In this document: piece by piece, positions 23,945 through 28,741 of the stretch | How the letters are laid out: every line of letters begins with the position of its first letter | How positions within the stretch are numbered: the stretch's first letter is position 1 | Source of the DNA: an uncultured Gammaproteobacteria bacterium | Lineage (GTDB): Bacteria > Patescibacteriota > Microgenomatia > UBA8517 | Assembly: GCA_964635715.1 (NCBI GenBank) | Contig: CAZWNZ010000001.1 | Span: 344,274-408,273, forward strand | Length of the DNA stretch: 64,000 bases | Direction of reading: 5' to 3' | Translations under genes and position numbers: made by a program | Notes under the pieces: model-generated | The model's input: only the letters and a program-made list of their open reading frames with translations | The model's database searches: none | Told to the model about the DNA's origin: nothing

Positions 23945-26900
23945 TTAAAAGCCTACCGATTCGGGTGTGGCGCTTGGGCTTGCTACTGTTGATTCTCCGG
24001 CAACATCTGGAGATGCGGAAGGTGATGATTCAGATTGTTGACTTAAGCCAGGTGTCGAAATCGGCGTTGGTGTCGGCAAAAGCTTAATTAATTCTCCGAC
24101 CTGATCTTTATTCAAACAAACTTCATTGCCGTCCGTACCGACACATATCGTTTCTTGATGAGATTCTTTGGTAGTGACTTTATTTGCAAGATCAGAAAAG
24201 GTTGTTTCTATAAGGGTTATGCGTGTTGTAAGGTTTTCAATGAGATTGTAAATATCCGAAAGAAGCTCTTCTTTTGCATCTGAAAACTTTTTGTACATAC
24301 CATGAACAGCCCCATCATTCATATTGCTCTCAACATATGGGATAAGATAATCTCCGGTCGAAAGCCCACTTGTTTCGTAATTGGGTATTTGAAAACCTGC
24401 GCTAAATGCGATGAATTTCCAAGCATCGCCGCTTTTAACATAAAGACGGTTGTCGGATGAGTCGACAGCCAAAGCACCGTTGACGGCAGTATCTGAAAAA
24501 TCGGTATCGCTAACCTCCCCGGCTTTAATAAAAGTTGCTAAACCGCCAGTTGTGGCATTGACTAGGCCGTTTTTAGCAATGCTAAACTTGGTAATGCCGG
24601 AGGAGCTGGCTGTCATCAATTCCGCATCGCTTAATTGATCAATGATTGCAGCTGCTTTTCCGGTGGTCTGGCTATTGATATGCAAAGATGTTTGTGGGGC
24701 ATCAGTGCCGATTCCTGTATATCCATTTCCTCGGACCATCAAGAGATTTGAATTGTTGGTAACGTTGTTAATTTCTAATGCATAGTCACTAGAATTAGTG
24801 CCTGCACTTATATAAACGCCTTCCGATCCGGAAGTAGTGGATTTACCTTTAAAGGAACCTGCTGGTGTTAAAGTTGATGTTTGTTGAGTGGAAATGGCTA
24901 CAGCTCGTACAGTTCCATTTACCTGAAGTGCATATGTAGGGTTTGTTACTCCTATACCTACGTAGCCACTATTTAAAATTGTAAATTTAGAAGCCAAACC
25001 TTCATCCCCACCAACGGAAGTTCTTATATTTAGGCTGCCCCCGTTTAATATATCAACATTTGGAGAGGCTCCGTTAAAAACCAATGATCCGGATATTGAA
25101 GCGTTTCCGGCTATATCCAAAAGCGCTGTGGGGGTGTTAGTTCCCAATCCGATATTTCCGTTTGCAGCGATACTAAAAATAGCTGAACCCGAAGAAGACG
25201 CTATATTTAGAGGAGAGACACCATCGGTTCCAACAATGTCCAACTTTGAAGCTGGGTTGTCTGTTCCTATTCCAACATTTCCATTATTTGCAATAGTAAA
25301 CTTGGACAATAGGCCACCGTCGCCGCTAGGGGATGTACGTATAGTTAGCGCTCCGCCATTAAGCACATCTATATAAGGAGTGGCATTTGTAAAGGCAAGA
25401 GATCCGGAAATTGACGCAACTCCTGCAATATCTAGGAGTCCGGTAGTTCCCTGATCAATCAAAGAAAGAAGGGTATTTGTTCCATCATCCCAAGTCATTG
25501 TTCCACCATCATCCATTCTGAGAATGGGGGATGTATTGAAGGCAATATCCGCACCAGTTCCTGAGTTGGAGACACTAATGATTCCTCCAGTAGCTGATGA
25601 ATTAAGTTGAGATAAACTCAATAGATTAGCGCTATCAGCACACACACCTGTTCCATCACACATTGAGCTAAAAGAGGCAAGTGCGCCACTCAAAGATAGG
25701 CTAGTAGCATCGACAGGTTTCATAGGAGCCGCAATACTTGCCATATAATTGTTATTTCCTGTCCAGGTCATGGTAACATGAGTATCTCCTGGTTTTGTAG
25801 AAGCAGCCATGGGTACACCGTTAACGATTGAATTCCAAAGAACTGTTTGACTAGGGTCTGGGGTTGCAGTACCGCCCGCTGAAACGTAATTGTCTATAAC
25901 CAGTTCGTCTATGGCACTTGACACGGTTATTGAGCTACTTGATCCACCAGTGCTACTATCAGTACCGTAAGTACCAAAAGGAGTTGTTTGATTGACGTTA
26001 TACCATGTAACTGCACTAAGCTTGAGAATGGCGGTACCACTTAGTGTTACAGAAAGAGTATTCGTTCCCGATGGGGGAGCAACCATATAGTAAATATAAG
26101 CTTTTGAATATCCATTTGTTGAAGCTCCATATCCAAGTTGTGTCATGGCAATACCATTGTAAGTAATACTACTAACGGTTCTGTTGTATGTACCATTCTT
26201 TAATGTAACAAACGCGACAAGGATCATATTACTTTCTATACCGATAGTATGAGATAAAGATAAAGAACTGCCTTGGTCGACACTTTTTTCGGTTTGGTTA
26301 TCTTTAGTAATGGAGGGAACATTGGGGTTATAGGTAACGTTTCGATTGATTGCAAGAGCATTACTGGTTATAGCAGCCGAGTTAGTTTTTGTTGGAGACT
26401 GATCAATATTAACTACCTTACCACTGGTTATGTCTCCGGAGGTTGATTGTATGTTTAGTCCGGTGCCTGTTGTTAGTCCGTCAAAAGAGAAATCTACCCC
26501 TGTGCCTGTTGTAATAGCATCTGCGGTTACATTTAGCGCGGTTGATGTGGCCGATTGATTTACGTCTAACTTGGCAGAAGGAGTTGTTGTGCCGATTCCA
26601 ACGTTACCATTTGTAATGACCGTATTGGCAAAATCTCCTTCATCATTAATTCTTAAATCATTTTCGCTTTTGCTTAATCCGAGAAGGTTGGAAAGATAAT
26701 AAGATCCTGATACATTACTACTGCCGACAACATCTAAAGCCAAACCTGGTTCTGTTTTACCGACTCCAAGATTGCCAAGAACATAAGAATTTCCGGTTCC
26801 ATCTATTTTTAAATTACCTCCCGATGTGACATTTCCGGTCACGTCAAGGGTGGAGGAAAGGGTGGTGGCGCCGGATACCCCAAGCGTAGAAGAAAAATTT

Positions 26901-28741
26901 ACAGCGTTCAGGGTGTTGAGAGTGGATGATAAAGTAAGGGCGCCGCTTATACTGGCAGTGCCAACGACCTGAAGTTTTGTAGAGGGATCGTTTGTTCCTA
27001 TTCCAATATTTCCGTTGTCAAAAATAGTTCCTGATTCAAGGCTGTATGTTCCTGCCCATCGGCTAAGATAATTAAGTGTACCTGACCCTCCAAGATTTGA
27101 TCCGACACCTGCACAATTTCCGGAATCCAGACAAACACCTCCTGAGTAATCGGGGAATGTGTAATTTCTGTTTTCCGTTAAAGTTCCTGTTTTTAGAGTT
27201 CCAAGAAAGGATGAAGATGTGTTGCCGATGTTTAAGAAACCACTTGAATCAATACTAAGAAATGTAGTTGTACCGCCGTAATTTTTAACGGAAAAAACAT
27301 CAGAGATGCCACTGCTTGCTTGTTGAATACTTAATCCCGTAGCATCCGTATTGGTTGGTACAATTGATTGAGTTGATCCGGGATCAGTTACCAAACAGTT
27401 GGTGCATGTTCCACCTTCTCCGGTAACAGTACCCCAAGCGAGGGCACCTCCTTCAATAGTTAAGGCCTGTCCCTCTCCGCCAATACTTAGTTTTGCCAAA
27501 CCTCCGGAAGAACTTGCGTACAAAATATCTCCGACTGAGTATGAGGAAATTCCTGTACCACCGTTAATGACGGGAAGGACACTGGTTACATCTGTTGAGA
27601 GGTCAATTGCTGATGATGAGACTACTCCGTTAAAATTGCTATGCAAAATTCCCGTAGAAAAAGAAGAAAAGGTAATTTGTCCCGAAGAAGTTAGACCTGT
27701 TGCACCAGTAACTGCTCCCGCATTGGTAATCCCTCCTCCCTGATTGTTTATGCCGTCGGTGACAATAATTCCGTCAGATACAGTTAGGCTACCGGAAAAA
27801 TGCCCGTTTCCGACAACATCAAGCGCGTATTCAGGGGTTTTCGTGCCTATACCAACCCAATCAGTAAGAGCGGTCGGGTAAATATAAGTTCCGCTCGTCG
27901 TCCAACCACTCAGTGTATAGTTTGGGGTAGATGAAGAAAAAGTGAGTTTCTTGCTTGATGTGTTGATCGAAACTGATGTAGCCCCACTGCCTGCAAACTC
28001 CAATGTCTCGGTGTTTGTTCCGGCGTCAAAAGTGTCTGATCCAACCTTAATTGTTTTAAATATTTTTTGTGAACTACCCGGATCGCTATTTGTAATAGCA
28101 ACCCCACTAATAGTAATTCCGGTTCCGGCGGTTAAAGAAATTTTGCCGGTTTCTCCTTGGAAGGAAGTGACAATATTCGGAGCCGTTATACTTTTTGTAA
28201 AAGTCACATCATTGTTAAATACGGAGGGTACATTAACATTGAAAGTATAGTTTGAAAGTATCGGGGAGGTTGTGGAGGCTGCTAAGACATTACTTTTAGA
28301 TTCGTTTTGCAACAAAAGGTGATCATCTTTAAAGGTAATTTGATTCGCAATAATCTCCGCACTTTCCTGCGGAGAATGTCCTTTCAAATTTAAAAAAGAA
28401 AAAACACCCGTAAGAGTAATTAACAATAAAAGAGAACTCCAAGTAAAGACAAAAGCAACTGGGGATAAAGATTGGCGAAATCTAGGAAGTGTTTGTGTTG
28501 TGCTTGGCGATGGGGCATTTAAATTAATGAAGCTGAAATCCCTCAGCTGCTGATATGTATAAAAACGTTGGTTTCCCAAAGATCTTTCTGGAACAAGTTT
28601 TCCATTTTGAGACCATCTTCTAAGAGTTTTTCCTGAAACTCCCAATATCTTCGCAGCTTCCGAAACACGTAGTTTTTTGGGCATGATATGTGTTTTTGTA
28701 TGCAAACTTAAACTGGACATGTATCTAATTTGCCTGTCCAA
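23945..28741 (-). CDS. Giant (1598 aa) membrane-tethered surface protein: N-terminal excisionase/MerR-type HTH, one TM helix, very large Gly/Thr/Ser-rich repeat ectodomain
   Basis: N-terminus [30 protein letters not shown]...RFYTYQQL is an excisionase-family HTH. TM segment [23 protein letters not shown]. Ectodomain carries a recurring ~16-aa motif ([84 protein letters not shown]) like tail-fibre or beta-helix repeats. Coiled-coil and Pro/Thr/Ser-rich tail. A start at MPKKL (28684) is possible. Confidence 0.8.

Follow-up and report, generated by a model that had tools for sequence, protein, structure and literature searches.

A BldC-type helix-turn-helix tethered to a giant phage-like fibre in Microgenomates bacteria, and candidate operator sites at the fibre's own promoter

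Transcription regulators anchored in the membrane are a known and widespread class: ToxR, CadC and TcpP have an N-terminal cytoplasmic DNA-binding domain, a single transmembrane (TM) helix and an extracytoplasmic C-terminus, and ToxR and CadC combine an OmpR-type winged helix with small periplasmic sensors and activate other operons. In a census of 50,302 transmembrane regulators (PMC10269533), the census passages attribute 0.77% to MerR, 0.70% to MerR_1 and 0.30% to HTH_17, and Patescibacteria do not appear in those passages. Another point of comparison is BldC of Streptomyces (6ama, 6amk), a free 68-aa protein with a developmental regulon, in which Lys26 and Arg30 of the recognition helix contact bases and which oligomerises head-to-tail on direct repeats, the number of which is variable (PMC5859096). 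Here, we analyse a stretch of 64,000 nucleotides (hereafter “the window”, at its full length; contig CAZWNZ010000001.1, positions 344,274 to 408,273) from an ultra-small Microgenomates bacterium of the Candidate Phyla Radiation (CPR), related to Woesebacteria, which encodes a protein joining a BldC-type helix-turn-helix (HTH) through one TM helix to a giant extracellular fibre of phage-fibre nature. It is this BldC-type HTH on a phage-like fibre that is the new part, since a literature search, limited in extent and no proof of novelty, returned no description of such a fusion, nor of the operator arrays reported below.

In our preferred reading, to which we give a probability of roughly 55%, the protein is a membrane-anchored, probably trimeric fibre whose BldC-type HTH autorepresses its own promoter. 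The protein would cross the membrane once, with its N-terminus in the cell and its outer part forming a surface fibre, probably trimeric and probably adhesive. The tethered HTH would most likely recognise AAACTTGGACA sites that begin at the −10 box of its own gene or shortly after it, where its presence would block initiation or promoter escape, so that fibre synthesis would be under negative feedback from the quantity of fibre already in the membrane. A trimer would hold three HTHs side by side, an arrangement that would suit BldC-like cooperative head-to-tail binding to repeats one helical turn apart. The role of the system would then be the feedback control of an expensive attachment fibre.

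The gene lies on the reverse strand. Its mechanical open reading frame (ORF) spans 23945..28741, opens with a TTG and counts 1598 codons, hence the 1598-aa protein of the preliminary description of this DNA, which was right about the frame and the ORF but most likely not about the length. The TTG at 28741 sits within a conserved DNA motif, every homologue in the alignment starts at the equivalent of the ATG at 28684, and P0017, from a public protein collection, is the identical 1579-aa protein with the same ATG start. For these three reasons, the start of translation is almost certainly the ATG at 28684 and not the TTG, and the likely coding sequence of the HTH–TM–fibre protein becomes 23945..28684 (1579 aa plus stop). 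Residues are counted from this ATG throughout.

According to Pfam, a family profile, AlphaFold2 and Foldseek, the N-terminal domain (aa 1–56; 28517..28684, reverse strand) is a BldC-type, i.e., minimal MerR-like, winged HTH (wHTH). It had been described as an HTH of the MerR/excisionase type, and the three corresponding Pfam models all score over their cut-offs (MerR_1: 36.9 bits for a cut-off of 21.6; MerR: 36.1 for 28.2; HTH_17: 29.2 for 27), while 31 of 34 family members match MerR-superfamily models. AlphaFold2 predicts, with a predicted local distance difference test (pLDDT) of 88–96 across aa 1–52, a β-strand, two helices, a wing and a third helix. A profile built from 28 sequences (27 HTHs of the family and the stand-alone 72-aa HTH of the window, see below) retrieves BldC first (6amk/6ama, E = 1.6e-13), followed by MerR N-domains, RacA (4e-7) and the Xis of a mycobacteriophage, and BldC is again ranked first by Foldseek (target-normalised TM-score 0.72–0.81), before RacA, Xis and MerR N-domains. 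K19 and R23 of the recognition helix align with Lys26 and Arg30 of BldC; across the family, R23 and T20 are invariant and conservation is strong over the block LGVSxKTLRRWExxGxLxPxRTxGNQRRY.

Classical MerR proteins continue with a long C-terminal helix that dimerises as an antiparallel coiled-coil, and with an effector-binding domain. In our protein, MerR_1 matches profile positions 2–50 of 69 only, and the AlphaFold2 model proceeds from the helix at aa 44–56 through a short low-confidence linker directly to the TM helix; with so short a linker, the dimerisation coiled-coil and the effector domain of MerR are absent from the protein, as they are from BldC. The domain therefore has the wHTH-only fold and the base-contacting Lys and Arg of the BldC family. 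In contrast to the free cytoplasmic proteins of ~60–80 aa that make up that family, it is part of a longer chain with a TM helix and an ectodomain of 1480 aa, with one to three HTH copies in relatives, and the NCBIfam model HTH_BldC gives the fused HTH 21.5 bits, far under its cut-off of 77. Trans_reg_C, the signature of ToxR and CadC, yields no hit, the domain being MerR/HTH_17. With a DNA-binding domain and at least one TM helix, the protein falls within the definition of a transmembrane transcription regulator.

The single TM helix (aa 73–99; 28388..28468, reverse strand) is oriented with its N-terminus inside, as indicated by hydropathy, flanking charges and AlphaFold2. In agreement with the one helix announced earlier, aa 73–99 is the only segment of the protein with a 19-residue Kyte-Doolittle window above 1.6, and AlphaFold2 models a helix at aa 75–98. 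Its N-side flank bears two K+R and no acidic residue, against one K+R and two acidic residues on the C-side, and family-wide the K+R excess lies on the N-side in 57 proteins versus the C-side in 13. The positive-inside rule thus puts the HTH in the cytoplasm rather than outside the cell, which upholds the ToxR/CadC-like layout initially proposed (N-terminal cytoplasmic DNA-binding domain, one TM helix, outer C-terminus). The linker between HTH and TM helix varies from 15 to 174 residues across the family.

This architecture is widespread. A word-indexed search with the first 305 aa recovered three more proteins that share the HTH and the TM helix and whose ectodomain begins alike, while a scan of one genome per GTDB species yielded 16 loci, 12 of which have HTH, TM helix and fibre in one frame. 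Most of these 16 records are titled Woese-, Levy-, Shapiro-, Gottesmanbacteria or Patescibacteria. Four of them (L003, L004, L009 and L015) are titled “uncultured Gammaproteobacteria bacterium”, yet display the CPR-type synteny of c-like/ATPase genes and fibre, with 30–50% identity to Microgenomates loci, and are probably mislabelled. A metagenome scan added 80 further loci, for a total of 97, among which an N-terminal HTH is present in 57 (HTH+) and missing in 40 (HTH−). Moreover, an exhaustive profile search of 1.84 billion cluster representatives returned 266 clusters at E ≤ 1e-30; when 152 proteins were examined (the 150 best of the cluster search and earlier hits), 89 were found to open with one to three N-terminal HTH copies and a single TM helix, for lengths of up to 5468 aa, and the remainder with a plain signal anchor. 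The name given by NCBI to a 4725-aa member is “MerR family DNA-binding transcriptional regulator”, a label that, on proteins of ~4700 aa, hides their nature.

At face value, such a chimeric protein might be an artefact, either a small HTH gene fused to its neighbour by a frameshift or a prophage tail fibre with an excisionase, and both the HTH_17/excisionase-like hits and the ectodomain modules shared with phages could be read in this way. However, the frame is unbroken in 57 loci and in the 89 examined proteins, and no locus has a split version: a separate, split or frameshifted HTH gene was sought near the HTH-less fibre loci and none was found, which is why we do not regard those loci as split genes. 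A prophage is further contradicted by the housekeeping nature of the neighbouring genes, by a synteny that is kept across Woese-, Levy-, Shapiro- and Gottesmanbacteria and by the viral homologues of the ectodomain, which never carry the HTH. Conservation therefore effectively refutes an artefactual origin.

Upstream of the gene, the DNA cannot be aligned between groups of loci, and copies of AACTTGGACA occur in all groups. When the 250 bp upstream of the HTH were compared between 40 dereplicated HTH+ and 25 HTH− regions, the top de novo 8-mers were CTTGGACA and ACTTGGAC, each found in 21/40 HTH+ regions and 0/25 HTH− regions; the −35-like hexamer TTGACA is present in 39/40 HTH+ upstream regions. 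The consensus of 88 sites is AAACTTGGACA(A), unlike the AATTxxxx(C) of BldC. Allowing up to one mismatch, at least one site is found in 32/40 HTH+ loci vs. 1/25 HTH− loci and at least two sites in 25/40 vs. 0/25, corresponding to a density of 8.8 per kb upstream of the HTH vs. 0.20 per kb in the background. With a position weight matrix (PWM) at ≥14 bits, the densities are 8.6 per kb upstream, 0.018 per kb in fibre ORFs and 0.039 per kb elsewhere. Site clusters lie upstream in 35 of the 57 HTH+ loci, against none in 248 kb of HTH− loci. Seven of the HTH− loci have the same divergent c-like/ATPase synteny (see below) and represent a control matched for genomic context. The co-occurrence of the sites with the fused HTH is exclusive. 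The motif was also considered as a general genomic element and rejected as such: ACTTGGACA with up to one mismatch occurs 14 times in the window for 14.25 expected, and is not a dispersed repeat.

The case for the sites being read by the fused HTH itself rests most strongly on a covariation between one of its residues and the presence of sites. The Lys of the xKTLRRW motif is found in all 32 site-bearing loci, whereas seven of the eight site-less HTH+ loci (L003, L005, L030, L041, L061, L072, L074) have D, A, E or M instead, which leaves L055 as the only locus with the Lys but no site (Fisher p = 4.3e-7, kinship among loci being ignored). The loci without this Lys bear other repeats in the same place: AACTTGAGCA/AACTTGCGCA in L030, AAGTTGTGCA and AACTTATGCA in L041, AAACTTAGGA/AAACTTGGGA in L003, and CAATACCTA, which is common to the double-HTH loci L005 and L061. 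There is no obvious pattern relating HTH copy number to site arrangement.

The HTH might also not bind the sites at all, being instead a protein-interaction module, as in RodZ, while AAACTTGGACA would be an RNA leader or the target of another factor. Both RodZ and RsgI have a small cytoplasmic N-terminus, one TM helix and an extracellular C-terminus, which in RsgI is a large carbohydrate-binding module; the HTH of RodZ is Xre-type and binds MreB, not DNA, and the cytoplasmic domain of RsgI is an anti-σ factor. Neither protein resembles MerR or BldC, and cognate DNA repeats are not known from the promoter of either. In favour of a non-binding HTH, the sites are probably transcribed, the inverted pair of the window folds as RNA (−12.7 kcal/mol, z = −2.4), and a free BldC-like protein of 72 aa is encoded 5 kb away. 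Nevertheless, direct-repeat arrays such as those of the relatives cannot make hairpins, some loci have a site upstream of the −35 box, and an Rfam search of the leader gave no family match, three points that make a DNA-level reading more economical. Since, in addition, the sites track both the fused HTH and its recognition-helix Lys, and the residues that would contact DNA are conserved, we hold a non-binding HTH to be very improbable.

The layout of the sites is informative as to their possible role. A promoter can be recognised in 22 loci, and in 19 of these the start of the first downstream site falls −1 to +16 bp after the −10 hexamer. Neighbouring sites in the same orientation are mostly spaced by 10 bp (11 cases) or 12 bp (6 cases), then by 20–22 and 32 bp, those in opposite orientation mostly by 19–22 bp, and in four loci a further site precedes the −35 box. 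The clearest arrays belong to Levybacteria-type relatives. Taken together, position and spacing suggest proteins arrayed along a single face of the double helix, over the transcription start, which is a repressor position. As with the direct repeats of BldC, the arrays are variable in number, with neighbours mostly 10–12 bp apart, and the only target seen is the gene itself, unlike the regulon of BldC or the other operons activated by ToxR and CadC. A classical MerR operator is a palindrome within a −35/−10 spacer of 19–20 bp; putative spacers of 19–20 nt do recur, yet the conserved sites are downstream of the −10 box, and the spacer of the window is without a palindrome.

Arrays of 3–7 sites would also provide strong avidity to a DNA–membrane tether, in which the HTH would hold its own locus at the membrane, either for transertion, the insertion of a very large membrane protein while it is still being transcribed and translated, or for a chromosome anchoring akin to that of RacA; the rate of transcription would then not be the main object of control. 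The product is indeed huge and membrane-inserted, and RacA of Bacillus subtilis, which has a MerR-like wHTH, fixes DNA at the cell pole and links specific DNA sites to a membrane region, is among the best matches in both sequence and fold. RacA is soluble, binds GC-rich palindromes as a symmetric dimer and reaches the membrane via DivIVA (PMC5859096), and it has neither TM helix nor ectodomain. A tether would not need so precise a placement as an overlap with the likely transcription start, the classic position of a repressor, and HTH-less relatives insert into the membrane without one. A tethering role is thus improbable.

In the window itself, the control region reads as follows on the reverse strand, towards the gene. 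Farthest upstream is a weak operator copy, AATCTTGGCCAA (28802–28813, PWM 9.6 bits), the equivalent of which in L002 is AAACTTGGCCA. It belongs to the region 28788–28817, where a palindromic operator had been postulated. An 8+8 palindrome does exist there, CCAAAATC-AG-GATTTTGG (28788..28805, inverted pair I4), but its place is upstream of the −35 box, and the two closest relatives, L001 and L002, do not conserve its second arm, so that we rejected it as the operator; the conserved part of the region is the weak site at 28802–28813. Then come a putative −35 box (TTGACT, 28779–28784), a 19-nt spacer (28760–28778) and a putative −10 box (TAAATA, 28754–28759), a putative σ70-type promoter with both boxes read from the sequence. 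The strong copy of the candidate operator, AAACTTGGACA(G), occupies 28734–28745 (AAACTTGGACA itself 28735–28745), scores 16.4 bits and starts ~10 bp past the putative −10 box; it is followed by an imperfect inverted partner, TGTCCAGTTT (28710–28719, inverted repeat I3), and by the ATG at 28684. The inverted site arrangement is also found in L001, L002 and L004. No Shine-Dalgarno-like sequence was seen by eye before the ATG of the window. Two further strong operator-like sites are located inside the fibre coding region, at 25298–25309 (forward strand, 20.6 bits, perfect) and 25236–25247 (reverse strand, 17.4 bits). The two are in inverted orientation, with 62 bp from one start to the other, and no other internal site reaches 14 bits across the 113 kb of fibre ORFs from HTH+ loci. 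They encode SKLDI and, antisense, LSKF of one repeat module, and could be due to chance in codon choice or form an internal operator pair.

The extracellular part (~1480 aa; 23948..28387, reverse strand) has the appearance of a fibre. It includes 7–8 modules of the GNVGIGTxxPxxKLDV type, i.e., seven strict copies of GN(V/I)GIGTxxPxxxL(D/Q)V and a looser one, identified by eye, around aa 1320, and its eight Cys, which are all those of the protein, form four close pairs. The repeat ectodomain of the preliminary description is thereby borne out, including its Cys-containing modules; a helix occupies aa 1473–1504, and Pro, Ser and Thr abound in the tail. No Pfam family matches the ectodomain, and a scan of five of its segments at E ≤ 1 gave nothing useful. 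The GNVGIG modules weakly match a PHROG tail fibre family (E = 8.5e-5) and Bd3182 (8ojn, E = 0.03), a “mosaic adhesive trimeric” (MAT) fibre with which Bdellovibrio recognises its prey (PMC10769870).

Two other parts of the ectodomain are homologous to virion fibre or minor tail proteins. The membrane-proximal module (aa 178–262; 27899..28153, reverse strand), which ends in …NTETL and holds most of the invariant columns of our alignment A1, also occurs in virion proteins of phages: 44 viral loci of IMG/VR match that part only and are never accompanied by the HTH, and the viral proteins carrying it match PHROG tail fibre, minor tail and head decoration families. The central β-sandwich (aa ~795–995; 25700..26302, reverse strand) is the only well-predicted part of the C-terminal AlphaFold2 model (pLDDT 70–93) and resembles phage minor tail proteins, with 51 BFVD matches at E ≤ 0.001 (best: E = 3.3e-11, TM-score 0.76), many of them to minor tail proteins of mycobacteriophages; in the PDB, a fold search with the same model gave nothing at E ≤ 0.001, the hits being generic β-sandwiches. 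The domain is a likely binding module. Further on, the long C-terminal helix (aa 1473–1504; 24173..24268, reverse strand; pLDDT ~75–81) is a probable coiled-coil neck, and the tail rich in Pro, Ser and Thr (aa 1535–1579; 23948..24082, reverse strand, from the translation) has similar counterparts in the relatives P0134 and P0084.

A trimeric state is likely for this fibre, by inference from P0084, a relative in which the HTH, the TM helix and the same central domain are combined with a Collagen triple-helix region and Peptidase_S74, the C-terminal domain that serves phage-type trimeric fibres as an autoproteolytic chaperone. Collagen and S74 modules are obligate trimers. Peptidase_S74 is also present in several HTH-less homologues of the ectodomain, but within the HTH family P0084 alone carries these two modules (206 sequences scanned for Collagen, 34 members of alignment A4 for both), which excludes them as general features of the family. 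The window protein itself has neither Collagen nor S74, PF13884 being absent even from the segment scan at E ≤ 1. The likeness to MAT and phage fibres comprises the weakly matching GNVGIGTxxPxxKLxV modules, the viral homologues of other modules, the S74 of relatives and a mosaic, tip-swapping design (PMC10769870). In contrast, those fibres have no TM-anchored cytoplasmic DNA-binding domain, and the anchor here is the N-terminal TM helix, not a docking domain. As a side observation, P0197, a 1507-aa HTH–TM–fibre homologue from a Patescibacteria metagenome-assembled genome, is interrupted by insertions of the Hint/intein type, one of them with a NYN domain, which directly follow GVGTTxPxxKLHVxG motifs.

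The nature of the ectodomain bears on whether the protein could be a contact or ligand sensor of the ToxR/CadC type, in which the fibre would sense a host or a ligand, change the activity of the HTH and switch other genes too. In this respect, the preliminary description had seen a gigantic sensor in the ectodomain. Its fibre-like character stands, but P0134, which is 45% identical over 97% of an 865-residue query (aa 716–1579) and has the same membrane-proximal module, opens with a signal anchor and has no HTH, from which the HTH looks like an add-on to a structural fibre rather than part of a dedicated sensor. The ectodomain thus looks, from its sequence, like an exchangeable structural or adhesive fibre and not a conserved sensor. 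In relatives, full and partial sequences taken together, it is modular, extends from hundreds of residues to 5468 aa and is interchangeable with that of HTH-less proteins. Besides, there is no evident route for a signal through a single helix, and in the 64-kb window and ~770 kb of related loci, site clusters are found almost only at the fibre promoter. A sensor would gain from the layout, which is the same as that of known transmembrane regulators (PMC10269533), from the probable binding domain of the ectodomain and from the fact that the target search covered less than a whole genome. On balance, we deem it possible but unlikely. A direct coupling of surface attachment to transcription, as envisaged at first, is speculation, because the only target detected is the gene's own promoter.

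Two other readings would give the outer part an active role. In the first, the protein would be a contact or mechanosensing device, in which the clustered HTHs of unengaged fibres, three per trimer, would sit on the operator array and keep the gene off, until engagement with a host surface, pulling, or loss or shedding of fibres altered the clustering of the HTHs or released the domain and so re-opened the promoter, and possibly others. We regard this as rather doubtful. In the second, a pull, shedding or intramembrane proteolysis would free the HTH as a soluble transcription factor, as with Notch or RsgI. A giant ectodomain with one TM helix and a small cytoplasmic regulator does resemble the receptors of the RsgI and Notch types, and the HTH–TM linker is 15 to 174 residues long. 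However, no protease partner is conserved beside the gene, no autoproteolytic module was detected in the window protein, and nothing in our data requires a release, which makes it quite improbable.

Autorepression nonetheless has several observations to contend with. DNA binding, repression rather than activation, the trimeric state and adhesion are all things that we infer. Promoters and starts are consensus guesses, in which the recurrent 19–20-nt spacers could mean mis-assigned −10 boxes, and a standard promoter scan, which accepts spacers of 16–18 nt only, did not call the promoter of the window. The window itself has a single strong promoter-proximal site, with an imperfect inverted partner and a weak upstream copy, against the much clearer arrays of Levybacteria-type relatives, and the two strong sites of the coding region have no explanation in the proposed model. 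The sites are part of a presumed 5′ leader, and in loci with inverted pairs they can fold as RNA. Furthermore, the loci are phylogenetically related, so that both the counts and the Fisher test overstate their independence, and the ~770 kb of related loci searched along with the 64-kb window amount to less than a whole genome. Finally, the trimer is read from relatives, the window protein being devoid of Collagen and S74, and the AlphaFold2 monomer of the fibre, of poor confidence beyond the central domain, has a mean pLDDT of 51.9.

Upstream of the fibre gene and divergent from it, a 260-aa gene (28876..29658, forward strand) heads a cluster of α, γ, β and ε genes of an ATP synthase. Of 54 HTH+ loci, 40 have its homologue at most 2.5 kb upstream, 39 of them in divergent orientation. 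In the encoded protein, a signal peptide and an extracellular domain of ~150 aa are combined with a two-helix hairpin at the C-terminus, which resembles a c subunit. PDB sequence hits of the hairpin are to F-ATPase c subunits only and are weak (E 0.5–0.8); an Ile stands where the ion-binding Glu aligns, and there is no match to Pfam ATP-synt_C. By BLAST, stretches of the giant fibres in L013 and L014 are similar to the extracellular domain of this c-like protein. In the window, the ATPase cluster (29668-33438 and the 260-aa gene) has a short α (429 aa) and a short ε (85 aa), and genes for a, b and δ were not found in it; in L003, L008 and L013, the space between α and the c-like gene contains b-like ORFs and short δ-like ones. 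The cluster may represent an atypical F-type ATPase linked to the fibre.

Downstream on the same strand (23199..23906, reverse), a 235-aa membrane protein had been presented as a co-transcribed LytR_C-domain protein. The same-strand membrane protein is there, but its LytR_C match reaches 20.7 bits, just below the cut-off of 22.2 that defines the family, and of 21 assessable loci just four (the window, L001, L002 and L071) have such a gene downstream, so that the association is restricted to this lineage and the gene was rejected as a conserved partner. Past it are UppS and a polyprenyl synthetase, and an ABC transporter is also among the neighbours; these housekeeping genes indicate that the region is not a prophage. 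On the other side, the stand-alone paralogue of the HTH reported at 33677 is a real gene (33677..33895, forward strand, 72 aa, HTH_17/BldC-like) of the same superfamily as the fused HTH, but with 29% identity to it, it is not a close paralogue. Its identity is 93% to the L001 counterpart and 89% to that of L002, where flanking genes are at 50–70%, and it may perhaps be an important small regulator in its own right.

Other features recur at related loci. CTGCCC, often as CCTGCCCTATG, directly precedes the start codon in 26/40 dereplicated HTH+ loci (e.g., L008 ~9990-10000) and is absent from the window. In Levy-type promoters (e.g., L008 ~9862-9892), the putative 19-nt spacer between TTGACA and TAATAT holds a perfect 10-bp palindrome, ACATATATGT, which resembles a classical MerR operator in its position and may point to a second regulator. 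Levybacteria-type L008 (8796-9731, reverse strand), like L011, L012, L015 and L016, has a 311-aa gene between the c-like and fibre genes, the product of which combines a degenerate Fic motif (QPFSDGNGRLSR) with a C-terminal HTH. Repeats of TGATAAGAT(TA) accompany this gene, and the motif occurs in 17/40 HTH+ upstream regions.

CPR bacteria/Patescibacteria are thought to live attached, and the way their attachment structures are built and regulated is largely unknown; recognisable regulators are very few in them. A family of hundreds of sequence clusters suggests a very economical design, in which a structural fibre would be its own transcription factor. If confirmed, BldC-type DNA binding would be extended to a membrane-tethered, probably trimeric setting, and a distinctive and well-populated class would be added to the transmembrane transcription regulators, with a BldC-type domain in place of the OmpR-type winged helix of ToxR and CadC and a fibre of 1480 aa (>5000 aa in relatives) in place of their small sensors. 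The 56-aa HTH and the 11-bp site, together with natural specificity variants (D, A, E, M), also make up a testable protein–DNA pair, which is rare for uncultured organisms. Should the fibre act as a contact device after all, a single protein would connect physical attachment to transcription in these ultra-small episymbionts, in a Notch-like manner, and it could also be tied functionally to the neighbouring atypical ATPase cluster, whose c-like subunit has an extracellular domain.

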